From the NCBI GenBank assembly GCA_046331265.1, contig JAXLRE010000007.1, positions 21,092 through 85,091 of the forward strand: a DNA stretch of 64,000 nucleotides, in the 5' to 3' direction. The position numbers and the translations under genes are program-made. This document shows, piece by piece, positions 12,904 through 42,172 of this stretch. How positions within the stretch are numbered: position 1 is the first letter of the stretch; each line of letters opens with the position of its first letter. Source of the DNA: Acidimicrobiia bacterium. Lineage in GTDB: Bacteria; Actinomycetota; Acidimicrobiia; IMCC26256; JAGPDB01. The notes under the pieces were generated by a model, which saw only the letters and a program-made list of their open reading frames with translations, did no database searches and was not told the DNA's origin.

Positions 12904-14337
12904 TTATGCTGGTAGAGCAAGCCTGTCAATTTCAACACGATAATAAGTTGAATTTGAATTTACTATGTATCTACCTAATCCATCCGTTGGTAAATTTAAG
13001 CCAGGCTTGATTTTGTACTTCTTAGGTGGTTCTCTAAAGTAGCCTTTTGCAAACACAACTGAATTTGGCGGATACATTCCACCTAGAGCAATATTAATTG
13101 AAATAGTAAATGTTCTTGTCTCACCAGCTCCAAGATCTCCGACAATAAATCGTTGTACACCGTTAACATAAATCGCTACATCTTCCAGAGGCAATTTGAC
13201 GCCATTAGTTGCAATAGTATCGTTACGAACTGTTACTTTGACGCTATCAGAAGATCCTTCGTCAACAACTATGTCTGTTTTATTTAGTGACACGTTTATT
13301 GCTGGCGTTACATATTCTATTTTGCAAATATCGTCTGTATCGATTGATTCTATGATGTCATCTAAAACCTTTTGTAAGTCTGATTCGAAGTTATCCGCAG
13401 TTGAATAATTAGCCGAACCTGCGCCAAAAACTTCATCCATTGCAGATGTTGCATCTGAATTTATCAAAACACCACGTACAACCATTGGAGGACGAGATCC
13501 TTCACCTTGACGTAATTTGCGTACTGTATCTGCTGAATAGATACGGCCTTGAGCCGCATCATAACTTGATACGTCACTAGGTTGAAAAACACGGTCTGAA
13601 CCGTTGTTAACATTTGGTTTTCCATCAGTAAGCATAAGGGTTAAATCTATGTGTTTACCTGGGGCAGAATCTGCATATGATGCTGATCCAACTTTGGCTA
13701 CTTCGTTAAACGCGTCATCCCAGTTTGTATATGTAAAAGGAACCGCTGTTGGGGTGCGTACACCAGCATTATATCCCCGTGCTACATCATTTGGATTTTC
13801 AGATGCATTCATCGTCGAATCATCATTTCCATATGCTGCTTTAGAGAAGAATATTTCGTTAACACTTTGTTTCATGACATCTAAACTTGTTGTGTCATTA
13901 ATTCTTGTTATCAGCTGATTAGATGCTGTCTTTTTATTTTGGCTAACGGTCCTTGAACCAAATGCATAAAGCAGAACGTTTGCCTCTCCCCCACGAGAAA
14001 TAAGAATATTACTTAAGCTAGAAAGAAATCTATTAACACTTTCTTTATAAAAATTAGGATTTGAATCGATCTCTGAGACAGAACCTGAACGGTCCAGCAC
14101 CAGAGCAAGCGTCAATACAGGCTTCTCACAATCGAGTTTTATCGGCGGATTAACAACATCATTATTTGCGCTTAACCGTACAGATTTTGTCTTAAGCAAG
14201 GGATTTGCGCCTGATTTAGTAGAACCAACGATAGTCAAGGCGCTTACTAATGCAACTGAAATAGCCAATGCAATAAGAGTTATATGGTACCGATTAATAC
14301 GGTGGGGCTTAACGGTCTCTTCCATGGAGGCGCTCAT
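12904..14337 (-). CDS. Membrane-anchored vWA domain protein, paralogue 2 (C-terminal CARDB/Ig-like domain)
   Basis: TM anchor (ITLIALAISVALVSALTIV), MIDAS LVLDRSGSV, and LMLTDGKPN. The C-terminal segment VSLNKTDIVVDEGSSDSVKVTVRNDT...GDLGAGETRTFTISI resembles CARDB-type Ig folds. Confidence 0.7.
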   Translation of the reverse strand: MSASMEETVKPHRINRYHITLIALAISVALVSALTIVGSTKSGANPLLKTKSVRLSANNDVVNPPIKLDCEKPVLTLALVLDRSGSVSEIDSNPNFYKESVNRFLSSLSNILISRGGEANVLLYAFGSRTVSQNKKTASNQLITRINDTTSLDVMKQSVNEIFFSKAAYGNDDSTMNASENPNDVARGYNAGVRTPTAVPFTYTNWDDAFNEVAKVGSASYADSAPGKHIDLTLMLTDGKPNVNNGSDRVFQPSDVSSYDAAQGRIYSADTVRKLRQGEGSRPPMVVRGVLINSDATSAMDEVFGAGSANYSTADNFESDLQKVLDDIIESIDTDDICKIEYVTPAINVSLNKTDIVVDEGSSDSVKVTVRNDTIATNGVKLPLEDVAIYVNGVQRFIVGDLGAGETRTFTISINIALGGMYPPNSVVFAKGYFREPPKKYKIKPGLNLPTDGLGRYIVNSNSTYYRVEIDRLALPA

Positions 14338-20527: not shown

Positions 20528-20557
20528 AATCACCCCGCCGATGGGGTGATTTTTTTT
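20528..20557 (+). terminator. Rho-independent terminator / attenuator in the leader of the 20589 gene
   Basis: AATCACCCC-GCCGAT-GGGGTGATT stem-loop followed by T7. It lies only ~30 nt upstream of the ATG at 20589, and no gene precedes it on the + strand. Confidence 0.7.
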
Positions 20558-20588
20558 GCTCCATCAGCGGTTAACCAAGGAGCAAAAA

Positions 20589-21692
20589 ATGACTTACACG
20601 CCAGATCTAAGTGAAAAGGCATTTCAACCCCGTTATGCACTTCCAGAAAGAGCCAAACCACCTGTTCTAGGTTTCATAACGGACTGCACGGATGATTTAG
20701 CCCTAACCAAAGTTGAACTCGCAAAAATTGACGCATTCGGCGATGGCTGGAAACTCTTACCAACGATTGGGATACCTAAGTTTCAAACAGATGTTTTAGG
20801 AGTTCAAGGTGCCGTGTTAGCACGATATCTTGGCGAATATTCTCAAAAAAACGAAGTTCAATGCGCATTGATACTTAATAGCGCACCGAGAGTTCAAGGT
20901 GAAGGACTCATCGGTGGTGAAATACTAGTTATTGAATTAGATAACGGGGTTCCTGTTTTATTAACCAATGGACCTGGCGTGCTCGAGCCTTTCGAAGGTC
21001 GGATTGCTAATGCGTGGAAAATTCATACTGATGTAATGGTCCAAAACGAGACATTACAACCGACCCAATTCCGATCATTTAAATGGTTCTCTGATTTACT
21101 ATCAAAGTTTTTATATGCGGATAAAGATCTTGTTCACACACCAATTGAAGATATAAATACCTATTTTGTTCCAAGAGAAAACGAAGGTCCTTTTATTTGG
21201 CATATAGATAATTTCGGTAACGCAAAACTCACGATTACTGAATCATATTTAGAAGAACATGGAATCGAAGAAGGCGATGAACTAGTTTTACAAATAGCAG
21301 GGAAACAAATTGTTGCAACTGCACGCCAAAAATTATTTCCTTTACCTGAAGATGCAGATAAATTCCATATTGGACATTATAAAGGTAGTGATCAAAACGG
21401 CGACCAACATTATTGGGAGCTTGCTATTGCTTGGGAATCGTTTGCTGCTTTCGTCGAGAACGAAGCGGTTTCTATTGACTCAGACTCGACGCCTACAAAG
21501 TTGATACCTGGCGCACATGTAGAAGTTCTTGGTATAAGAAAAAGTGTTGACCGTGAGGAAAGAGACTACGACGAGCCTAATGGCGTTGTAAGCGGGTTGA
21601 GTGTTGTAACGATCGCATCTCCAGCGCATAGACAACACGGCACAGAAAAATCCGATACGACAAGAGCGGCGCCAACTTTAGATGATTTATAA
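20589..21692 (+). CDS. Distant SAM hydroxide adenosyltransferase (DUF62 / chlorinase-fluorinase fold)-like protein with ~100-aa C-terminal extension
   Basis: LGFITDCTDD (compare LLTDFG), ALILNSAPRVQGEG (compare VVDPGVGS), FRSFKWFSDLL (compare FHGRDIFAPVA), and IWHIDNFGNAKLTI (compare IDRFGNLITNI). The ATG at 20589 with SD AAGGAG is preferred over the track's TTG at 20556, which lies inside the terminator T-tract. Confidence 0.4.
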   Translation: MTYTPDLSEKAFQPRYALPERAKPPVLGFITDCTDDLALTKVELAKIDAFGDGWKLLPTIGIPKFQTDVLGVQGAVLARYLGEYSQKNEVQCALILNSAPRVQGEGLIGGEILVIELDNGVPVLLTNGPGVLEPFEGRIANAWKIHTDVMVQNETLQPTQFRSFKWFSDLLSKFLYADKDLVHTPIEDINTYFVPRENEGPFIWHIDNFGNAKLTITESYLEEHGIEEGDELVLQIAGKQIVATARQKLFPLPEDADKFHIGHYKGSDQNGDQHYWELAIAWESFAAFVENEAVSIDSDSTPTKLIPGAHVEVLGIRKSVDREERDYDEPNGVVSGLSVVTIASPAHRQHGTEKSDTTRAAPTLDDL

Positions 21693-25919: not shown

Positions 25920-26471
25920 TTAATGCTTAACAGTTTGTGGTGTTTCTGAAACTGATATTTTTGCTCTTGAAGCTTTGTCTTCACCCTGCATAGAGCCAAC
26001 GGCACGAGATACCAGCTCAGCAGCTGTTTCACAGTGGTCCCAAACTGCTATTCCCGCGGCTAAAGAGGCCGTAGGAGGCAAAGACTCTTGCAGTCTTTCT
26101 ACAGCTTCATAACCTTCGTCTAAACCTGATTCAGGAAACAGGACAAAGAATTCCCCGTCTTCATTTCTTGCGATTAGATCTGAGCCTCTTACCGCTAGAG
26201 CAAAATCTTTTTCTATTTTTGCATATGCTTGTGGATCAGATTTTTTTTCAGAAGTATTAATAGTCATAACCGCTATACATACATCACGTGCATCACGATG
26301 TGATCGAACGATCTCTCTTTGTAAAGATGAATTCCATTCACGTAAACCTGTAAATGTTGAGTCAACAGCTTGAGCAGCAACACGGTCATTACTTTTCCTT
26401 AAGTAGTATGCAATTCCTGCAGCAAGTGCAGCAATAGACGAAACAAAAAGGACAGACTTAAATTTCTTCAT
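25920..26471 (-). CDS. Membrane-anchored degenerate GGDEF-like domain protein (EDGEF in place of GGDEF, RxxD I-site retained)
   Basis: One TM helix, then DSTFTGLREWN (compare D.LTGL.NRR) ... RGSD-LIARN-EDGEF-FVLFPESGLDEGYEAVERLQESL ... AAGIAVW. The FKxxND/GH/GD block is not recognisable. The ATG at 26471 (SD AGGAG 5 nt upstream) is preferred over the TTG at 26486. Confidence 0.5.
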   Translation of the reverse strand: MKKFKSVLFVSSIAALAAGIAYYLRKSNDRVAAQAVDSTFTGLREWNSSLQREIVRSHRDARDVCIAVMTINTSEKKSDPQAYAKIEKDFALAVRGSDLIARNEDGEFFVLFPESGLDEGYEAVERLQESLPPTASLAAGIAVWDHCETAAELVSRAVGSMQGEDKASRAKISVSETPQTVKH

Positions 26472-26593
26472 AACATCTCCTAACAAAACTATTATCGCCT
26501 AAAAAAACTAGCTACGTAAAGGAAAATGTTAAATATTCTTAAAAGTCTAAATCAATCCAGCGAATTTAATGCACTGACGCGAAATGATGACTC

Positions 26594-29784: not shown

Positions 29785-32700
29785 TTATATTGTCTTTGTC
29801 TTATAAAAAAGCTTTCTTCTTACTATCAAAATGCTAATAATCACGATAAATAAACTGAGAGAAAGGATTAATAGTACATATCTAACTAACAATAAATCTC
29901 CGTGTAGAGAACGAGGATTTATATGGTCAATACCGTTCTTATCTGTATTTTCAATATGCTTTGTCCCAGGCACAAGAGATAATTGGATAGTCCTACCTCC
30001 TTCTAGCTTTAATGAATAATCCCCAACATTGATATCTTCGAATGAAAATTTTCCATCTTTATTTGTAGAAGTTTGTCCGATTCGAAGTTTATCTGAGTAC
30101 AGAAACACCTTTGTATCTGGTTCATCTTTACCAACAAGTGATGCGCTACCTACTAAAGGTAACGAAGTAATAGTCACACTCGAATTATTCACCAGCGTAA
30201 CTGCTTTGTCTGTCTTGCCCACTACTCCATCGATAACTTTTTGTTTATTAGATAGTGGAAGAACAAATCCATTCGGTATTGATTTGGATTTTACACCAAC
30301 AAAGTATCTCGCTGGCTTCACTTTACGAAATTCGTAATTACCTGATTTATTTGTAAATGTTGAAGCTACTTGGTTACCAAATAAATCAATAAGAACCACT
30401 TCGAGTCCTGAAACACCTGGTTCAATAGATTCTTTAATATTATTCCTGTTGAAATCTGCCCAGTAACTGCCGTTTATATTCGATCCTCGAAGTTTGTACA
30501 CCAATCGTACTTTATTTAAATTGTTCCCAGGAATAAATGACGTTTTGAAGTCGCCATTAGAAGAAGATTTGATTCGTATAAAACTATCGTTTATAAATTC
30601 GAAACCAGTAGATATATTTCCTTCTAGTGAATAATATGTGGGCGCGATAGAGTCTTTAACAAGATTAAAATCTATTTTTGATTCAACAATCTTTGAAACG
30701 TTGACAGGTTCAGATGCAAGTTCTTGGCTATCAATTTTTTTATTTTCATTAAAATCTACCCATCGAATTAAACGAATATCACCTGTATCCAGTTTTGGAT
30801 CTTCTTTATTATCTGATTTTGATTTAATAGCAATTGAATAACTCCTCTGCTCATTGTCAAGCGGCAAGTTATTACCAAACGACACTTGATTTCGTGATAA
30901 TTGAAACCATTTTGTAACAACAGCCTTTGAGTCTAGATTCGATATTTCAGAATTATTACCAAAAACAAAATCACCACTAGAAACTTTTTTATTTCCTATA
31001 TTTGTATAGACCAATGCGTATGAGGCATCAGGTGTTAAATTTTGGAAACTCGTTTTTCCTTTTGATACACCAAAGTATCCTTCGCTATCAGTTACATCTT
31101 TTGCAATTTCAGGAGTTTCTCCTGGATCCTTAATTCCATCTCCATTGATATCTTTAAATTGCACGAGAGATACTGATACAGAACTAATTGGATATTCACC
31201 ATCATCTTTTATACCATTTGAATTTTGGTCGAAGAAGACCTGCCCACCTATAGAACTTGATTGACCAACTGGGACAATTAATTTTGATATGTCATTATTG
31301 GATAGTTGAACATCATTTCTTTCGTTTATATCTCCATCTGCTTTCACAAAGCTCGATGAAATCATTCGACTAAGTGAAGTAGAAGTCGTAGAAATATTTG
31401 ATATAACAGAAAACTCAATTTGTTTGGTTTCACCTGGATTTAGATCTTTCCTAGATGAACATTTCATTGATTCTTTTATGAACCCACAAGGCGTAAAATC
31501 TCCAGTCGACGTCATTAAGGCACTTTTATAATCAAAGTCTTTACCTAGCTTAGAAGTAATTTGATATCCAGATTTTATAGACACTTGGCTATTGTTTCTA
31601 AGTGATATTTTTACATTAATACTGTCGCCAGGAACGTAACCATTTGATGGTACGTTTGTAAGTTCTTGGGATAGGCCAACATCATATTTTTTAATAAACC
31701 CTATATCTAGATTATTTATTTTACCGTTATTTGCTTCACTTGCGTTAAATATCTCTGTTCGAAATCCATCTGTAGTTTTGACAGATTTATTTGCCTTTTT
31801 TGAAGCTTCTGAAATATCGAATGAAGGATCAATGTTAAATATTCTCGCGTAATATTTTCCAGGTTTTATTAACCTAATAGATATTTGCCCGGATGAATCG
31901 GATTCAGTATCATCACCATTATCATCTTGCGTTCCTAATACTCCATCTTTACCAATATTGATTTGTTTATCATTTGAATCAAATAGTTTAAGTTTTGCTC
32001 CATTAATTCCTAATTCGTTTATATCCTTTACTCCATTACTATTACTGTCTTCATATAAAGATGAAGTAACACTAACTGCGCCAGAATCCGATTTATTTGA
32101 TGAGTTTGTATCAATTGAATTATTTGAATAGCTTAAGTACTCTGTTTTTATCGCAGCACTATTGAGAGACTTATTAGATGTCTTGTCATGTGTGATATTT
32201 GTTAATTTAAGCATGGAAGAACAAATAAGAAGCAAAATAACACTAAACGAAATAAGATTTACCGACCTTGTTAAGAAATCTCGCTGTTTAAATGCTCCAG
32301 CTGATTTAATTACATTGTCATAAGATAAGTTTTCTTCTAATTCAATGTTTCTTGCTTGATGATACGGATAAAGAACTGAACAATAAGTTATTAGATCGTC
32401 CATAGCCTCTTGTGAAAGTTCTTTGAATGCAACACCTATTTGGTATTTATCTCCACGGGCTGCAGAATAAGTCACTTTTCCTACCACTGTTATAAGCGAA
32501 TCGCCATGGATTGTAGGAATTCTGAAAACAATAGGTGTTTCATCTCCGACTTGAAGTTTCGTATCAGATAGATACGCGGCGCCTCGATGGGTGAGATCGA
32601 TTATCCACATAGATTCATAACTAGATGAACCCGTTATGGATACTTGACGCCGCGCGAACGCACGTTGTCGAGCTGACATATACCTCTTTGCTGAATAATA

Positions 32701-34035
32701 AATTATTAGAGCCAAAGGCAGTGTCATGAACAACGAAAAAATTGTTACATTAATCGGTATTAATTTTGAAATGTTTTTATTTTTCACAAAGAAACTATTA
32801 AGTATCAAAGCTATAAATGTGATTAATAAAAAGGCAGGAATTATTTTTACTTTATGATTTGTTAAAAGGTTTTTATGCTTTCTGTTCGAAAAACTTATGC
32901 TTAAAAATGCCTCTAGATCAAGTACTCGATCGCGAATACGTTCGAATAACCCCCTCCTGTCCAACCCTATTTTGGTTGAAAAATACCCAAGAGTGGAAAC
33001 ACCTAAAAGTAAAACAAGATTGATAAATATTTCTTGATTGACTATTTGAGGTCTGATTGATACAGAAAGAAAAGCTACAGCATACAAACACGTAGAAACG
33101 GCTTTAACCCAAAAGAACCGCATGTAAAGCCATCCAAGATATCTACGAATAATGCCCATTGCAGTATCTACATATTCTGGATGTTTACGTAAATTTCGTG
33201 ATACATATATACGCGACAATCTGGTTGTTATATTATGATCGACTTCATTGAAAGACATACATTCACAACATGGATGTGAAGTAATTGTCCCACCCGATCT
33301 TGTAGAAATTATTTTTGCAATAAATTTCTCAAAATTTAAAGTTAGAATTTCTTTTAATATTTCACCCAAACCTGCAATTGTCCCATCAGCTAAAATCGGT
33401 CCACCCGTATAAATAGGAACGTTATAACTTCCTGCTTTTTCTGCAAGCAAAGTATCAATAGATAGATCGTTCCTCGACCTACGGACACCTAAAGCATGCG
33501 AAGAATAGTTACTATGGTTCAGTTCAACAAATGATATCTGTTTTGCAAAGCGTCTTTCCGCTACTAGAACTGAATCAGGATACAAAATCGTATGGCCATT
33601 AGTAACTAAAAATCTCGTATCTTTTACTTCACTATTTAATTCCGAGTTATTGTATTTAAAATTAAATTCACTACATAAAGATTCAATATCTTTTCTATCA
33701 TCTTGTGCAAATACAAAAACTTCTGGTTTGCCTCTCAAGTTCTTAATCGAGAGAAATGAAATTCTTACCGTTTCGTAATCTTCATCACCAACAAAAATTA
33801 AAACACAAGTATTTTTGTCAGCAATCTTCTCGAACGAAACGATGCGTACCCGGCGTAATAAATAAACCTCTATTGAGTGCAGAAAAAATCCAAGTGTAAA
33901 CGATATGAGAATTAGTAACTCAAAAAAGTTTCTAGATTTTACAAAACAATAAATTAAATAGGACATGAAAGCTAATGCACACAATTTGTGCGTCAGCAGC
34001 AAAATAAACTTAGTAAATTTTCTAAGCATTCTCAC
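29785..34035 (-). CDS. Giant membrane protein: BcsA-like core (2 TM / GT-A-like / TM block / partly degenerate PilZ / TM) fused to a ~770-aa extracellular SdrD-B/Cna-B + DUF11 stalk and a C-terminal TM anchor
   Basis: - 1416 aa.
- PilZ region at aa ~455-560 (RRQVSI ... DLTHRG).
- SdrD-B-like signatures: GGQVFFDQNSNGIKDDGEYPISSVSVSLV, SLYEDSNSNGVKDINELGINGAKLKLFD, GSYWADFNRNNIKESIEPGVSGLEVVLIDLFGN.
- DUF11-like block: GDSINVKISLRNNS...DLNPGETKQIEFSV.
- C-terminal end: LLILSLSLFIVIISILIVRRK.
- The start may be GTG 34035 or ATG 34029. Confidence 0.65.
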   Translation of the reverse strand: MRMLRKFTKFILLLTHKLCALAFMSYLIYCFVKSRNFFELLILISFTLGFFLHSIEVYLLRRVRIVSFEKIADKNTCVLIFVGDEDYETVRISFLSIKNLRGKPEVFVFAQDDRKDIESLCSEFNFKYNNSELNSEVKDTRFLVTNGHTILYPDSVLVAERRFAKQISFVELNHSNYSSHALGVRRSRNDLSIDTLLAEKAGSYNVPIYTGGPILADGTIAGLGEILKEILTLNFEKFIAKIISTRSGGTITSHPCCECMSFNEVDHNITTRLSRIYVSRNLRKHPEYVDTAMGIIRRYLGWLYMRFFWVKAVSTCLYAVAFLSVSIRPQIVNQEIFINLVLLLGVSTLGYFSTKIGLDRRGLFERIRDRVLDLEAFLSISFSNRKHKNLLTNHKVKIIPAFLLITFIALILNSFFVKNKNISKLIPINVTIFSLFMTLPLALIIYYSAKRYMSARQRAFARRQVSITGSSSYESMWIIDLTHRGAAYLSDTKLQVGDETPIVFRIPTIHGDSLITVVGKVTYSAARGDKYQIGVAFKELSQEAMDDLITYCSVLYPYHQARNIELEENLSYDNVIKSAGAFKQRDFLTRSVNLISFSVILLLICSSMLKLTNITHDKTSNKSLNSAAIKTEYLSYSNNSIDTNSSNKSDSGAVSVTSSLYEDSNSNGVKDINELGINGAKLKLFDSNDKQINIGKDGVLGTQDDNGDDTESDSSGQISIRLIKPGKYYARIFNIDPSFDISEASKKANKSVKTTDGFRTEIFNASEANNGKINNLDIGFIKKYDVGLSQELTNVPSNGYVPGDSINVKISLRNNSQVSIKSGYQITSKLGKDFDYKSALMTSTGDFTPCGFIKESMKCSSRKDLNPGETKQIEFSVISNISTTSTSLSRMISSSFVKADGDINERNDVQLSNNDISKLIVPVGQSSSIGGQVFFDQNSNGIKDDGEYPISSVSVSLVQFKDINGDGIKDPGETPEIAKDVTDSEGYFGVSKGKTSFQNLTPDASYALVYTNIGNKKVSSGDFVFGNNSEISNLDSKAVVTKWFQLSRNQVSFGNNLPLDNEQRSYSIAIKSKSDNKEDPKLDTGDIRLIRWVDFNENKKIDSQELASEPVNVSKIVESKIDFNLVKDSIAPTYYSLEGNISTGFEFINDSFIRIKSSSNGDFKTSFIPGNNLNKVRLVYKLRGSNINGSYWADFNRNNIKESIEPGVSGLEVVLIDLFGNQVASTFTNKSGNYEFRKVKPARYFVGVKSKSIPNGFVLPLSNKQKVIDGVVGKTDKAVTLVNNSSVTITSLPLVGSASLVGKDEPDTKVFLYSDKLRIGQTSTNKDGKFSFEDINVGDYSLKLEGGRTIQLSLVPGTKHIENTDKNGIDHINPRSLHGDLLLVRYVLLILSLSLFIVIISILIVRRKLFYKTKTI

Positions 34036-34115: not shown

Positions 34116-36053
34116 TTATCTTAGGTTTGATAAGTTAGAAAAAATGATTGCAGCTAATGCTGTAAAAGATGCCGCATATGATAAAAACCTTTTTTCTGGT
34201 TTACCATTAAATTTTCTAGATACTTGTTCAGTTTTAACACCGGTTTTAGCTTCACGCGCTTGTTCGAAAGGATAGATAATAGAGCAATATTTTTCAAGTG
34301 TATCTATTTGACTCTGTTTTAAATCAATAAACTCAATCCCTAATCTATATGAATCGTTCCAAGCTACACATGATTTGATGTAAGCGTTACAAGAAAATTT
34401 TTCATTAGTTGAGTTCTTTGTAGGAAGTGAAGATTCAAATATGATCTCTCTACCTTCTTCATATGGCTCTACAGATACACAACCTGCTCCACCAGCTGAA
34501 AGATCAATCATCGATATCGGCTTAGAATCAATATTCGCTCCACGTGACACTTCACGTCTCATTGCGCTTCTTGATTGACGAATAATTACCATTCCTAATC
34601 CAATTAGTAACGTAACCAATAATGCATAGCCAGCAAATAACGATCCATATTTAAGTAAACGTGGAACTAACAATTCTGGAACATTTTTATGCTGTATATA
34701 GGCCCGGTAAATCAAAACTACGTCGGTGACTATTAGAAGAAAACTAACACTAGGAAGCTTCTTTACAATTGATTTTGTACTCGATCTCTTTTCAGGAGAC
34801 ATAAAAACCTTATAAATGTTATACATTACCGCTTCAACATCAAAATAATACTCACGAACGCGAGCTAGAGGTCCCCTTTTATCTCCAGCTAAAACGCTGC
34901 CTAAAAATACAGTCAATATAGTTGCCAAAGCAGCTGAAATATATGTTTGGTTTACGAAAGAAAAGTTCGATGGATACAGCACAAATCCTAGAACAAGAGC
35001 AATCATTCCAACACGTCGAATTAGTGAAGCATTAATCATTAAAGACCAAGTCTTTACTCCTAGCCCAATAATTCGCTTCCCTTTAGGATACGAATTACGC
35101 CAAGCACCAGAAGAATATAGGAAATCTAATCCACGCCATTGAACCTCAGAAATTGTTTGTTCATACGAAATTTCTTCACTAACGACCTCTTCAGTTATTG
35201 TTCCATGTATGTTATTTCGTTCGCAAGATCTTAAGAAAGATGCGGAACTTGTTGCATAAGAAGAATTGTTAAGAGCTGATGCATTAACTAAAACAGGTCC
35301 AGTTGACCAAGTCGATAAGGAACGTGACGCCAATGCTTCTCTAATCATTTGCCTTTTATCGCTAACCTCAATAATGCCATTTACACCTAAAGCTCGTTCA
35401 TCACTATATACACTTCGCAATTCTAAAAATGTTGATTCGTCTACTTTGTAGTTTTTAGCAACTGCAAATGCATCTGGATACATGATGTCAGTCCCACGAC
35501 AAATTAAAACTTGATCTGTTGTCGCTGCGATGTTGTGAAAACTCTCTGCGACATGAAAACTAAAATCCTTTGTTAATATTTCTCGCTCTGGTGAAAGAGA
35601 ATTATCGATTACATAAACATTTGCAGCATTATCGAGCATTTCGATTGAAAGAAAACATCTACGTAACTGATCAATAGTTGCTTCTTCAGCAAAAATTACA
35701 ACATCTATCGGAGCAATACCATATTCACCACTCGCAACAATTTGCTCAGTTTCTACTTTAATTGTATTTGTTCCAGCATTTTGTTCTGCATTGGCTGCTT
35801 TTGAATATAGAACTTTTTTTGCAGATTCTATAAGTACATTTTCATCTTGGACACGGTTATTTGTTGATACTTTTGTAGCCATTAATGATGCTTCGACACA
35901 TACCAACGCCAAAAGTGTGAATTCACAAGTAGCGGTTAAAACATTTATATCACTGTAATTATTAATTAGCGTGGTAAGCCTGTAAATTCCATAGGCAATA
36001 GAAGCGATTGCAACAATTGCAGCACCAATCTTCCTCTGATAAGAATTCTTCAC
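34116..36053 (-). CDS. BcsA-like membrane protein: 2 TM / GT2-like cytoplasmic domain / TM block / canonical PilZ domain / C-terminal TM
   Basis: 645 aa, GTG start with SD AGGAG. PilZ motifs are RREVSR (RRxxxR) and DLSAGG (DxSxxG). The GT2-like pattern is IDVVIFAEEATIDQL...VYVIDNS...ICRGTDIMYPD. It is a paralogue of the first ~610 aa of the downstream 1416-aa gene. Confidence 0.65.
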   Translation of the reverse strand: MKNSYQRKIGAAIVAIASIAYGIYRLTTLINNYSDINVLTATCEFTLLALVCVEASLMATKVSTNNRVQDENVLIESAKKVLYSKAANAEQNAGTNTIKVETEQIVASGEYGIAPIDVVIFAEEATIDQLRRCFLSIEMLDNAANVYVIDNSLSPEREILTKDFSFHVAESFHNIAATTDQVLICRGTDIMYPDAFAVAKNYKVDESTFLELRSVYSDERALGVNGIIEVSDKRQMIREALASRSLSTWSTGPVLVNASALNNSSYATSSASFLRSCERNNIHGTITEEVVSEEISYEQTISEVQWRGLDFLYSSGAWRNSYPKGKRIIGLGVKTWSLMINASLIRRVGMIALVLGFVLYPSNFSFVNQTYISAALATILTVFLGSVLAGDKRGPLARVREYYFDVEAVMYNIYKVFMSPEKRSSTKSIVKKLPSVSFLLIVTDVVLIYRAYIQHKNVPELLVPRLLKYGSLFAGYALLVTLLIGLGMVIIRQSRSAMRREVSRGANIDSKPISMIDLSAGGAGCVSVEPYEEGREIIFESSLPTKNSTNEKFSCNAYIKSCVAWNDSYRLGIEFIDLKQSQIDTLEKYCSIIYPFEQAREAKTGVKTEQVSRKFNGKPEKRFLSYAASFTALAAIIFSNLSNLR

Positions 36054-38921: not shown

Positions 38922-39521
38922 ATGTTAAGACTACAGGAAAATTTAGTTAACTACTTTAATGATTCAATTCAACACAGAAATATACATAAATGCGGGAGTT
39001 ATCCATACGCAGATGGACTGTTTTTAAACGAATTTGTCAGACAATTCAAAATAAAATCTGTTTTAGAAATCGGTACAGGTATTGGATATTCTTCTACATG
39101 TTTGGCATTAGATAATGATGTAAAAGTTACGACCATTGAAATGATTGAGGATCATATAGAAATTGCAAAAAAATATTGGAATAATTTTTCGACAGAAAAT
39201 ATATATCCAATTATGGGAAAATCTCTAGAAGTGCTACCAGACCTTACTGATAAATTTGAAATGATATTTTTCGATGCTTTTGCACCTAACCCACAAGAAG
39301 CAGAATTGTATTTAAACTTAATAGACAGCAAAGGAATAATTGTTACTACAAATATTTCTTGGAACGATACTACTCAACCATATTTAAAAGTTTTTAATGA
39401 TGCAGGTCTTTTCACCATTGTCAACGATGACACCGCTTTTAGTTCATTTAACGAAACTTTTACAGAACAAAGCTCCAGCTTTTATTTATCTAAAAACTGG
39501 AGCTTCGCTGAGACTAGTTAA
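38922..39521 (+). CDS. Class I SAM-dependent methyltransferase (O-MT / MnmC-methyltransferase-like)
   Basis: SAM motif I VLEIGTGIGYSS. FFDAFAPNPQEAELY resembles the D.F.P..NP..W motif of MnmC-type methyltransferases. Confidence 0.6.
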   Translation: MLRLQENLVNYFNDSIQHRNIHKCGSYPYADGLFLNEFVRQFKIKSVLEIGTGIGYSSTCLALDNDVKVTTIEMIEDHIEIAKKYWNNFSTENIYPIMGKSLEVLPDLTDKFEMIFFDAFAPNPQEAELYLNLIDSKGIIVTTNISWNDTTQPYLKVFNDAGLFTIVNDDTAFSSFNETFTEQSSSFYLSKNWSFAETS

Positions 39522-40480
39522 CTATTTCTGAGTGCTTTTATTCTTCTACGATTAGCAAATATCAAAATAGCTGCCATGATGCCGCTCATATTTACCAATA
39601 TAAATGAGAAGTCTAAAATATTGCTTTTTGTAAACGACCAACTACCTAGCAACAAATGATTTGGATTTAGCACTGATTTAGCAACTTCTGGAATTTCTGA
39701 CATTAAGCCAGAAATAGTCCCTATTGAAGGAGTTAATGTTGTAGCTCCACTTGTTGATGAATTCGTAAGTGCTGTCAAAGAGTTACCAGAATGAGATCCA
39801 GTTGTTCCTGTACTAACACCGCTGTTGCTTGAACCTTCGCTAGTTGAGTTCGAATCTGTCGCCGCATACCTAACAACATTTTCGCCAAGAACGGAAGCCC
39901 CATTTTGTATAGCTGAATAGTCGCTAACTGAAGCTTGACCTAAGCGGACACGTAGAGTTCCGCCTGCGGTCATACCATTTATTCGTATAGTCCATTCTGT
40001 AGATGAATTCTGCACGAAACTATATACATTTCCGCCACCATCCAAGATTAGATCGCTTTGGTCAAATGATGGAGCCCAAATTGGTTTAGAAAATTCGACG
40101 TTGAAACAAGCATCGTCTACATTTATTTCTTCACCAGTTCCAGGACAACGATTTATGGTCACTTGTAGTTCATTATTGTCATAAACCAAGTGCATAATGT
40201 TATTGGAGTAAAGCGCGAAACCATCACGGCCCATTTGGAATTCGTAAGCGAATTCGTAGCTATCTGGTTCACTTAGATTTCCTGCTAGTACTACTCCATA
40301 AACTTCAGTTTGATTAGAGGTGAAACCTTGACCAGTTTGAATGTTGATCTGTAGTGGAAAACTAGCACCTGATGGCACAATCCCTAATGAACTTACGAAT
40401 AAGCATTGAATGACTTCTCCAGTATATAGAGTGGAATGCTGGTCCAAGATCTTGAATCTGTCCAATGCTTGTACAACCAA
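39518..40480 (-). CDS. C-terminal fragment of a disrupted surface protein (Ig-like adhesin domains, S/T-rich stalk, C-terminal TM + RRRIK tail)
   Basis: It has no signal peptide and only a TTG 'start'. Its reading frame is the same as that of the upstream 40514..40714 fragment. It ends ...GIMAAILIFANRRRIKALRNS. Confidence 0.5.
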   Translation of the reverse strand: MVVQALDRFKILDQHSTLYTGEVIQCLFVSSLGIVPSGASFPLQINIQTGQGFTSNQTEVYGVVLAGNLSEPDSYEFAYEFQMGRDGFALYSNNIMHLVYDNNELQVTINRCPGTGEEINVDDACFNVEFSKPIWAPSFDQSDLILDGGGNVYSFVQNSSTEWTIRINGMTAGGTLRVRLGQASVSDYSAIQNGASVLGENVVRYAATDSNSTSEGSSNSGVSTGTTGSHSGNSLTALTNSSTSGATTLTPSIGTISGLMSEIPEVAKSVLNPNHLLLGSWSFTKSNILDFSFILVNMSGIMAAILIFANRRRIKALRNS

Positions 40481-40788: not shown

Positions 40789-42063
40789 CTAAAGATACTG
40801 TATCTCCAATAGGTGCTGTGATATTGTCCTTCTTGAAGGATTCAATACTAAACATTGACCAGCCCTTACATTCAATCCTGTCCAAACACTTTCAGGTGTA
40901 ACCGAACCAGGATCTGTAGCACTATTTCCTTGGTCTGTTTGTTTTTGTGAATCGATTTTTGTCATTGTCCAACCTTGAACATCAAAGTCGAAAGTAATTT
41001 CTTCTACAGCTCCAAAACCTGATGTGCAAATATGCACCCATGAATTTGAATATAAACCATTTACTGGAAATACAACATTGTTATTGCCTACATACATATT
41101 TAGATCTACATCAAGAACGATCTCAACAATGTCTTGGATCAGATCTGGTTGACCACCATTGTTTAATGAACCTGGATTATCAGATCCATCTCCTAACTTG
41201 CTTGAAAGTAAATTCAAGTTCCATGAAGCTTGTTGACCAATTTCTCCACTAACTGTGCCCTGTCCACCAAAACTTACACACTGACCTGCTTGCATAAGAC
41301 CTGTCCAATGGCCGTTAGCGTCAATAGTTCCTTTATCTAGAACATCTTGATTGCTCCATTGATTATCTTGGACACTATAAGTAACGTTTGACCAATTTGA
41401 AGTTTGCACATCTAAATCAAATTCTGAAACTGAACCATATCCAGAAGCACAAACGTTAAACCAGTTTTGGTATGTTTGATCTGGATAGACAGTTGTTTGA
41501 TTATTGCCCATACCAATATAGGTTTGTAAATCAACTTGATATACAGGTGTCACAATAGGATAAGAAATTGTTGGTGAAGAATTTTCTTGAATAACTCCTT
41601 GATTCGGTGTGTCGTCGACGAGAGTGCTTGAAGTAACAGATACTGTTTCAGTTAATGTGTCTCCCACATTTCCTGTTACAGTTCCCCAAGGGAAAAGTGT
41701 AAAACATTGATTGTCTTCTATTAAACCATTCCAAACACCGTTTAGATCAACACTTCCTAAATCAGTTGCTGTATTCCACTCGTTTCTTTCTTGAACAGAA
41801 AGTTGTGTCATGTTCCAGTTGGTTGCTTGAATATCAAAATCAATTGTTTTGATTGAACCTGCACCATAAGAACAAACTTGAATCCAGTTATTGTCGTAAA
41901 ATGCTCCAGGCATATATTCAGTTTTAGAACTTCCAACATATATGAAGAAATCTGCGTTATTACCATCTGCTGCAAACGCACTAGATACATTCACGACTTG
42001 AGTAGTCCCAAGCATAAACATCAACATTGTGGAGATCAATATGGCTTTTAGTTTCTTGCCCAT
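40789..42063 (-). CDS. N-terminal fragment of the disrupted surface protein: signal peptide plus three ~140-aa tandem repeats of an unrecognised Cys-containing domain
   Basis: ATG 42063 with SD AGAGGTG gives MGKKLKAILISTMLMFMLGTTQVVNVSSAFA|ADG. The repeats begin near aa 52, 192 and 334 (track numbering). The third repeat is cut by a frameshift near 40845. Confidence 0.6.
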   Translation of the reverse strand: MGKKLKAILISTMLMFMLGTTQVVNVSSAFAADGNNADFFIYVGSSKTEYMPGAFYDNNWIQVCSYGAGSIKTIDFDIQATNWNMTQLSVQERNEWNTATDLGSVDLNGVWNGLIEDNQCFTLFPWGTVTGNVGDTLTETVSVTSSTLVDDTPNQGVIQENSSPTISYPIVTPVYQVDLQTYIGMGNNQTTVYPDQTYQNWFNVCASGYGSVSEFDLDVQTSNWSNVTYSVQDNQWSNQDVLDKGTIDANGHWTGLMQAGQCVSFGGQGTVSGEIGQQASWNLNLLSSKLGDGSDNPGSLNNGGQPDLIQDIVEIVLDVDLNMYVGNNNVVFPVNGLYSNSWVHICTSGFGAVEEITFDFDVQGWTMTKIDSQKQTDQGNSATDPGSVTPESVWTGLNVRAGQCLVLNPSRRTISQHLLEIQYL

Positions 42064-42172
42064 TTTTACACCTCTGCTGTCCCGACTTATGTATTTATAT
42101 CGTCGCAAAAGAGGGATTTAAGAATAGGTCTAAAGAACTGTTTATTCGCAGATTGTTAAATATTTAACGCAG

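Follow-up and report, generated by a model that had tools for sequence, protein, structure and literature searches.

A BcsA-like PilZ protein with a predicted SdrD-B-type external stalk in an Acidimicrobiia genome

In BcsA, the glycosyltransferase (GT) domain is regulated by a PilZ domain together with an RxxxR linker, and BcsA and BcsB can be joined in one polypeptide in which BcsB is tail-anchored (PMC8892547). Alg44 unites a PilZ domain, a transmembrane (TM) helix and a periplasmic domain in a single chain (PMC8892547). Here we analyse a gene with a comparable plan in a 64,000-nucleotide stretch of DNA from an Acidimicrobiia bacterium (assembly GCA_046331265.1, contig JAXLRE010000007.1, positions 21,092 to 85,091), called the window below. 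The gene lies on the minus strand at 29785..34035, stop codon included, and is a 1416-aa open reading frame (ORF) whose product will be called the long form, to tell it from a shorter, stalk-less paralog encoded next to it. An earlier, sequence-only reading had described the product as a cytoplasmic PilZ module coupled to an external adhesin-type stalk, and had stated that known systems in which cyclic di-GMP (c-di-GMP) controls adhesins use separate proteins. That statement overlooked the BcsA-BcsB single polypeptides and Alg44 (PMC8892547).

The explanation that we favour, with moderate confidence, is that the long form belongs to a conserved two-gene envelope module that derives from BcsA and responds to c-di-GMP, and that it carries a non-rigid stalk in the position of BcsB; to judge from its motifs, its catalysis is doubtful. 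Under this explanation, c-di-GMP would bind the PilZ domain and act locally on the BcsA-like core, as in BcsA. After the seventh TM helix (TM7), the chain would continue outside as four to six immunoglobulin (Ig)-like domains of the SdrD-B type bearing Ca2+ loops, and would re-enter the membrane by a helix followed by an RRK tail. The stalk would be a flexibly tethered external partner at the place that tail-anchored BcsB takes in BcsA-BcsB fusions, and it may act as a spacer or scaffold in the wall zone rather than as a rigidly actuated adhesin. The long form would probably cooperate with its stalk-less paralog.

BcsA-like core and PilZ domain

The ORF is real and not a chance reading frame: it has a 100% match in the NCBI database and nine further homologs at 32-41% identity. 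The public entry (P0001, MFN8016096.1), from an Acidimicrobiia metagenome-assembled genome (MAG), is a 1393-aa 'SdrD B-like domain-containing protein'. This model begins 23 codons downstream, a start with which TM1 would be lost; the public annotation probably truncates TM1 and overlooks the BcsA-like core. For the start codon, the ATG at 34029, which gives 1414 aa, is more likely than the GTG at 34035. It is preferred because the N-termini of the orthologs ('MLRK') match the MLRKF of the window protein and because a Shine-Dalgarno-like run, GGGGTGAG, stands immediately 5' of it. The GC content at the locus is 0.33-0.34, slightly below that of the flanks.

Eight hydrophobic segments were detected by Kyte-Doolittle analysis (aa 10-29, 37-60, 307-327, 331-354, 393-419, 425-449, 586-615 and 1380-1405). 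The positive-inside charge pattern fits an N-in topology, in which aa 61-306 and the PilZ domain are predicted to be cytoplasmic, aa 616-1376 to lie outside, and the C-terminal tail to be inside. All features described below are on the minus strand, like the gene itself. TM1 and TM2 (33856..34008) correspond in alignments to the helices on the N-terminal side of the BcsA GT domain, and E56 within TM2 is conserved. They are followed by a cytoplasmic GT-A-like domain with degenerate motifs (aa 61-306; 33118..33855), recognized by alignments and by AlphaFold2 (AF2), and by TM3-TM6 with a cytoplasmic amphipathic helix at aa 358-383 (32689..33117). The PilZ domain and its linker (aa 456-561; 32353..32670) were delimited by Pfam matches and conservation. 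TM7 (aa 586-615; 32191..32280), found by Kyte-Doolittle analysis and AF2, is predicted to take the chain outside.

An AF2 model of aa 1-625 was built from 28 aligned sequences, with a predicted local distance difference test (pLDDT) score of 78.4 and a predicted template modelling (pTM) score of 0.79. Its top Foldseek matches in the PDB are BcsA structures (9b8v_E, 2e-16; 4p00_A, 1e-14; TM-score about 0.55). Lower in the list are hyaluronan synthases and plant CesA, and the PilZ protein MotI (5vx6) is also among the matches. BcsA was reached by sequence alone as well. Because the stalk columns of profile A2 drew solely SdrD-type matches from the PDB, an N-terminal-only profile (A5), which bridges the window family to more distant actinobacterial relatives, was needed; it matched E. 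coli BcsA with an E-value of 5.7e-16 (profile positions 1-477) and R. sphaeroides BcsA with 1e-14. Given the agreement of the fold match and the profile match, aa 1-615 as modelled are BcsA-derived, with TM1-2, a GT-A-like domain, TM3-6 plus the amphipathic helix, a PilZ domain and a seventh TM helix in succession. The sequence-only reading had omitted the BcsA-like fold of aa 1-450 plus PilZ. Its cytoplasmic location of PilZ stands, but PilZ is not a module of its own, as it belongs to a complete BcsA-like core.

In the long form, the Pfam PilZ model (PF07238) matches aa 468-552 with 26.8 bits against a cut-off of 22.5 (25.2 bits against the same cut-off in the short form), and AF2 places the beta-barrel at aa 467-537. 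The PilZ ligand motif has been defined as [D/N]hSxxG (Galperin and Chou, 10.1101/814665). In the long form, R458xxxR462 is present and invariant, and D480-L-T-H-R-G485 is invariant in all ten long forms; Thr thus replaces the canonical Ser of the second motif (DxTxxG). This Thr-type motif is common to a wider actinobacterial group, and the short paralog has RxxxR with a canonical D-L-S-x-G-G. PilZ and its linker make up the most conserved segment of the protein, with a mean identity to orthologs of 73%, compared with 16-42% elsewhere. Because both motifs are kept and PilZ is by far the most conserved segment, binding of c-di-GMP is probably retained. The linker between PilZ and TM7 (aa 562-585) has a pLDDT below 50, is predicted to be disordered and, together with the spacer that follows TM7, is only 16-21% conserved. 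The amphipathic helix between TM4 and TM5 bears the pattern GDxR...D..EA, with D359, R361, E375 and A376 invariant in both paralog families; speculatively, it might be a docking surface for the PilZ linker.

The positions of the catalytic motifs were mapped by hidden Markov model (HMM) alignment to BcsA, by multiple alignments and, for the short form against a group of GT2-PilZ proteins, by hhalign (probability 99.6%, E 1.2e-23). The DD(G) position of BcsA corresponds to A109-Q110 in the long form, and one Asp is kept in some short forms. The DxD position is occupied by N146-G-H148 in the long form and by R-G-T, followed by an invariant D189, in the short form. At the TED position the long form has F235-E236-K237, the third residue differing among the ten long forms (D, E, K, L, N or A). 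The QRxRW position reads T271-R272-L-S-R, in which just the Arg is kept and there is no Trp. The region of the FxVTxK gating loop (aa 385-394) is unconserved, with a pLDDT below 50. In the short form and the orthologs, too, the QRxRW position keeps no more than the Arg and the gating loop is unconserved. No Pfam GT2 model matched either paralog (E up to 1). Mean conservation among orthologs is 41% for the GT-like domain versus 20% for the TM core, and the invariant residues of the former include N146, P153-D154, E171-L-N-H-S175, H254-P-C-C-E-C259, E264 and R272. Because the DDG, DxD, TED, QxxRW and FxVTxK positions are substituted and vary among orthologs, the long form is unlikely to be a canonical synthase: processive glycosyl transfer of the canonical kind appears to be lost, and another role, in ligand binding, metal binding or structure, may have been kept.

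External stalk and C-terminal anchor

The predicted ectodomain has 761 aa. It begins with a Ser/Asn-rich spacer (aa 616-653; 32077..32190) that is 16% conserved and predicted to be disordered (pLDDT below 50). An AF2 model of aa 600-1416 (pLDDT 75.8) gives six beta-sandwich domains and a terminal helix. A Pfam scan of the whole protein finds four SdrD_B stretches; taken domain by domain, three pass the gathering cut-off of 29.7 bits, namely D1 (aa 654-782; 31690..32076) with 30.3 bits, D3 (aa 916-1050; 30886..31290) with 35.4 bits and D5 (aa 1185-1290; 30166..30483) with 51.2 bits. D3 carries an extra DINGDGxxDPGE loop and is the best-conserved stalk domain (42%). D2 (aa 786-897; 31345..31680) is a DUF11/arrestin-C-like beta sandwich with an Arrestin_C-like match of 28.9 bits against 27.7. 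Its DUF11 match is below threshold (20.0 versus 24.6 bits), and the ortholog P0002 has a precomputed PF01345 match. D4 (aa 1057-1182; 30490..30867) is a beta sandwich with no Pfam match and a WVDFNENKKIDSQE loop, and D6 (aa 1292-1354; 29974..30162) resembles prealbumin and CarboxypepD_reg domains, with sub-threshold matches only. D1 and D6 are each present in 4 of 9 homologs.

Five loops of the DxNxNGxxDxxE type are found, at aa 663, 936, 962, 1094 and 1194. The sole cysteines of the ectodomain, C850 and C859, both lie in D2 and are both invariant. The best Foldseek matches of the stalk model in the PDB are SdrD, the TIE protein of B. anthracis and Gram-positive pilins, and profile A2 matches the SdrD of the PDB with 2.8e-14. 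Pfam scans detected no ligand-binding domain of the A type, only B/Ig domains of the spacer type.

The stalk is predicted to be external and tethered at both ends. A cytoplasmic stalk is rejected by the topology, the Ca-loops, the invariant Cys pair and the SdrD-type folds. The sequence-only reading had proposed the same arrangement of PilZ inside, stalk outside and two tethers, with which the topology predicted from hydrophobicity and charge agrees, including the placement of the long C-terminal region outside and not in the cytoplasm. The coordinates and domain types that it gave are correct, and the peptide strings that it quoted are all present. Among these domains, PilZ and three SdrD_B domains exceed their Pfam cut-offs and DUF11 stays below, while the Ig-like fold is borne out by the six beta sandwiches of the AF2 model. 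The second TM helix with a basic tail was also recognized correctly: hydrophobic segment 1380-1405 is followed by RRKLFYKTKTI (aa 1380-1416 in all; 29788..29898; Kyte-Doolittle).

The terminal helix and an RRK(L/I/F) tail are present in eight orthologs. The C-terminus of the window protein and those of its orthologs lack both LPXTG and LAXTG motifs and are not matched by the LPXTG-anchor model TIGR01167. Two distant cousins, P0032 (2,714 aa; L008:547-8691) and P0044 (2,538 aa), share the degenerate BcsA-like/PilZ module at the N-terminus, which is followed by 8-10 SdrD_B stretches; their ends consist of LPITG and LPFTG, respectively, then a hydrophobic segment and a basic tail. P0032 scores 18.7 with TIGR01167, above the cut-off of 15.9, and P0044 scores 13.1, below it. 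Because the cousins carry LPXTG at this place and P0032 passes TIGR01167, the second anchor of the window protein looks like a Gram-positive sorting signal minus the sortase motif. The cousins themselves would be polytopic membrane proteins that are predicted sortase substrates.

One ortholog has a broken stalk. At L010:7971-11713 (JGI Ga0558717_00414), frameshifts split the stalk into at least three ORFs (725, 243 and 155 aa), the last of which ends ...LLRRRKLFR; the N-terminal module, the short paralog, rne, rplU and rpmA are intact. This may be either a decaying stalk or a local assembly error.

Gene pair, relatives and competing explanations

An exhaustive phmmer search with aa 1-625 against 1.84 billion cluster representatives returned just 24 matches, which marks the family as rare. 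The same collinear plan, with both anchors, recurs in eight more full-length orthologs (33-41% identity; ENA, JGI, NCBI and Logan assemblies); the homolog P0008 is truncated and has no C-terminal anchor. A third, word-indexed homology search with profile A5 found no members beyond those already known, a metagenome scan with the N-terminus of P0032 gave no match, and a scan with A1 gave no new contig. A scan of genome contigs for the family found three species representatives, two of them labelled 'Burkholderiales'. L005 and L006 (CAZFAO010000001.1 and CAZLQP010000003.1) have the rne-short-long-rplU module yet are titled 'uncultured Burkholderiales bacterium', which is probably a taxonomic mislabel of the MAGs.

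Among the more distant relatives, P0040 and P0042, from high-GC genomes, keep Pfam-detectable GT2 and PilZ domains and have Ig-like C-terminal extensions, P0042 ending with a TM helix and a basic tail. P0035, P0038, P0039 and P0043 are GT2-PilZ proteins without a stalk, P0043 being annotated as 'glycosyltransferase'; P0035 and P0038 keep DGD and pass the Pfam GT2 cut-offs. The gene neighbourhoods of P0042 and P0032 gave no informative context.

The short paralog (34116..36053, minus strand, 645 aa), annotated as 'PilZ domain-containing protein', has the same plan of GT-like domain, TM helices, PilZ and TM7 equivalent, and terminates directly after the latter, without a stalk. Its alignment with the long form covers 542 aa at 23% identity (E 2e-28). 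Its orthologs are 50-64% identical and are thus more conserved than those of the long form, with an invariant charged set that comprises RGTD, LELRSVYSDE and ITEEIVSEEIS. The short-form profile alone found nothing relevant in the PDB, and no BcsA. At every related locus with enough flank, the short paralog lies directly upstream of the long form, and the gene order is constant: rne, short, long, rplU, rpmA, obg, proB. In the window, this series follows an mreBCD-pbp2-rodA cluster. A promoter and terminator scan called no terminator-like site in the gaps between rne, short, long and rplU, which faintly hints at co-transcription. No further polysaccharide genes are found near the long form.

Several points weigh against the explanation proposed above. 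The GT-like domain is clearly constrained, with 41% identity among orthologs and many invariant polar residues, and H174 aligns with the His of the 'QTPH' of BcsA; non-canonical activity is therefore possible. The motif equivalences themselves were derived from alignments of sequences and profiles in which identity is about 10-20%. The BcsB fold is absent from the top 50 PDB matches of the stalk model in Foldseek. A scan of the 64-kb window for the motifs GGDEF, EAL, HD-GYP, sortase TLxTC and LPXTG was negative except for the two PilZ proteins; hence, no GGDEF, EAL or HD-GYP motif, and no diguanylate cyclase, phosphodiesterase or sortase, was found within it. The interaction of the two paralogs is putative, as is the function suggested for the module as a whole.

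A possible, if doubtful, alternative is that either form, or a heteromer of both, is an active, non-canonical synthase of an exopolysaccharide or wall glycan under c-di-GMP control, in which the stalk would be a BcsB-like co-polymerase or a guide through the wall. The BcsA fold, the layout of the TM core and PilZ are all kept, conservation is higher in the GT-like domain than in the TM core or the stalk, and the invariant N146, H174 and R272 stand at or near positions equivalent to the cleft. Retention of DGD and of above-threshold GT2 matches in P0035 and P0038, the precedent of BcsA-BcsB fusions and the flexible tethers on both sides of TM7, which suit a stalk that is an accessory subunit, point in the same direction. 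However, the equivalents of DDG, DxD, TED, QxxRW and FxVTxK are missing in both paralogs, the position of the catalytic base varies among orthologs (K, D, E, L, N, A), the window proteins have no Pfam GT2 match, the short-form profile alone fails to find BcsA in the PDB, the TM core is just 20% conserved, and other polysaccharide genes are not found nearby. A synthase carrying its own external domain had been the second proposal of the sequence-only reading. It is structurally the closer one, because PilZ is part of a BcsA-like core, and it is weakened by the lack of conservation of the catalytic motifs.

Its first proposal, a one-component inside-out device in which c-di-GMP at PilZ would act through TM7 to alter the presentation or adhesiveness of the stalk, seems unlikely. 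The architecture that it supposed is there: TM6 and TM7 flank PilZ directly, the TM6-PilZ linker contains the c-di-GMP motifs, the stalk is predicted to be external and adhesin-like, the LPXTG cousins would join a membrane module to the wall, and degenerate catalytic motifs are as expected of a signalling pseudoenzyme. The lever is what has been weakened. A rigid connection from PilZ to the stalk is disfavoured because the segments flanking TM7, linker 562-585 and spacer 616-653, are predicted to be disordered and are 16-21% conserved, which makes them poor transmitters of force or conformation. Moreover, the stalk has spacer-type B/Ig domains only and no ligand-binding A-type domain, and the same core occurs entirely without a stalk in the short paralog. 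Entire stalk domains come and go among orthologs, and in L010 a frameshifted stalk coexists with an intact N-terminal module; these two observations, like the segments that flank TM7, speak against a rigid lever and favour a role as tethered accessory or spacer. A related reading, to which we likewise assign a low probability, is that the family consists of BcsA-derived pseudo-synthases that link c-di-GMP sensing in the cytoplasm physically to the envelope by way of an Ig stalk stiffened by Ca2+, which would return to the membrane in the window lineage and be attached covalently by sortase to peptidoglycan in P0032 and P0044. If so, c-di-GMP would control a membrane-to-wall tether or surface display, a case of inside-out signalling in a monoderm.

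It is quite improbable that the long form is a constitutive structural protein of the envelope whose PilZ no longer senses c-di-GMP and serves as a structural plug of the BcsA-like core in a streamlined, cyclase-less lineage. The scan of the window for GGDEF, EAL and HD-GYP would agree with it, as would the range of 0 to 80 GGDEF proteins per actinobacterial genome (PMC10746217), the location of the module amid housekeeping genes with no terminator-like site in the intergenic gaps, and the Thr that replaces the canonical Ser in the PilZ motif. However, orthologs with an overall identity of no more than 33-41% all keep RxxxR and DxTxxG unchanged, and no other part of them is as conserved as PilZ, which is the pattern expected of a maintained ligand site; in addition, the short paralog has a canonical DLSxGG. 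As for an artefact, in which a PilZ membrane protein and an unrelated adhesin had been fused by a chimeric assembly or a mis-joined ORF, it is hardly credible and is rejected: the search for the same fusion, which the sequence-only reading had suggested, found this architecture in eight further full-length proteins at 33-41% identity, from independent assemblies and with the same synteny. Altogether, we retain the c-di-GMP-responsive, BcsA-derived module with a flexibly tethered stalk as the preferred explanation.

If catalysis is truly lost, a BcsA-fold protein would have been kept for a non-canonical role with its PilZ domain retained, a case for which full-text literature searches found no example. 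The partners fused behind a synthase-type PilZ would extend from BcsB to adhesin-type SdrD-B stalks and, in the cousins, to LPXTG wall anchoring. For the host, the pair is conserved and apparently embedded among housekeeping genes, between rne and rplU, in a low-GC lineage of Acidimicrobiia whose c-di-GMP biology is essentially unexplored.

Other ORFs of the window without a Pfam family were also noted. Two of them, at 39518-40480 (minus strand, 320 aa) and 40789-42108 (minus strand, 439 aa), lie between rodA and genes for a methyltransferase and a GATase, and no Pfam family matches them at E up to 0.001; an 869-aa protein of no family occupies the same position, after FtsW/RodA, in L001. Between proB and proA, a 188-aa ORF (25920-26486, minus strand) holds a position that is kept in L001, L003 and L010 (183-184 aa, no Pfam). 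Its sole match is GGDEF_2-like and below threshold (E 7e-4; 20.3 versus 24.5 bits), and it is probably not a diguanylate cyclase. ORFs without a Pfam family are also found at 12904-14337 (minus strand, 477 aa) and 20556-21692 (plus strand, 378 aa).

Comparison with known systems

The actinobacterial GT2-PilZ proteins P0035, P0038 and P0043 (about 600-640 aa) and their Ig-extended relatives P0040 and P0042 are homologous to the window family over the whole N-terminal module. They share the 'DLT..G' variant of the PilZ motif, and in P0042 the likeness extends to the end of the chain, with Ig-like repeats before the TM helix and basic tail. They differ in that they still pass the Pfam GT2 cut-offs, some of them keeping DGD, and in the high GC of their genomes. 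P0042, the only member of the group whose neighbourhood was examined, has neither a tandem paralog nor an rne-rplU context.

Among Gram-positive surface proteins, SdrD and the other Sdr proteins of the MSCRAMM family, together with pilins, resemble the long form in their SdrD_B beta sandwiches with Ca2+ loops and in their ending of a hydrophobic helix and a basic tail. In contrast, the long form has a polytopic N-terminal module of about 615 aa instead of a signal peptide, and lacks a ligand-binding A domain and LPXTG. Membership of the Sdr/MSCRAMM adhesins is rejected by the absence of signal peptide, A domain and LPXTG.

The likeness to LapD/LapG/LapA is one of concept only, as in both cases one pathway comprises a receptor for c-di-GMP in the cytoplasm and an adhesin-like protein at the surface. 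LapD senses c-di-GMP by a degenerate EAL domain, relays the signal through HAMP and controls a periplasmic protease. The long form differs in junctions that look flexible, and a LapD-like mechanism is rejected, since Pfam and NCBIfam scans found no HAMP, no GGDEF-EAL and no periplasmic protease-binding domain.

In full-text literature searches and PilZ surveys, no account was found of SdrD-B/Ig stalks or LPXTG signals in one chain with PilZ or a BcsA-like protein, which agrees with the sequence-only reading, to which no described protein with this fusion was known. The nearest described designs are those with which we began. The long form resembles BcsA in the overall fold of aa 1-615 (2e-16 in Foldseek; 5.7e-16 by profile HMM) and in the order of its parts: TM helices, GT-A domain, TM helices with an interface helix and a C-terminal PilZ, with RxxxR in the TM-PilZ linker. 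However, the equivalents of DDG, DxD, TED, QxxRW and FxVTxK are not conserved in the window protein, two TM helices precede the GT domain where BcsA has four, and a real TM helix follows PilZ where BcsA has a long C-terminal helix. The host is an actinobacterial monoderm, and the gene is accompanied by a stalk-less paralog and not by a bcs operon. The catalytic motifs speak against membership of the active BcsA-type synthases.

BcsA-BcsB fusions share with the long form a big extracytoplasmic part after PilZ and a C-terminal TM anchor (PMC8892547). The difference lies in the fold of the external part, which is SdrD-B/Ig-like in the long form and consists of carbohydrate-binding and flavodoxin-like domains in BcsB. 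Alg44, in turn, is one polypeptide in which a single TM helix separates PilZ, on the cytoplasmic side, from an extracytoplasmic domain, and is itself non-catalytic; unlike the long form, it lacks a GT-like polytopic core and a second anchor, its periplasmic domain is of another type, and it partners a separate active synthase, Alg8, of which no equivalent is evident here. By analogy, the long form would work most like a BcsA-BcsB fusion or an Alg44-type receptor in which PilZ, TM helix and ectodomain follow one another in a single chain.

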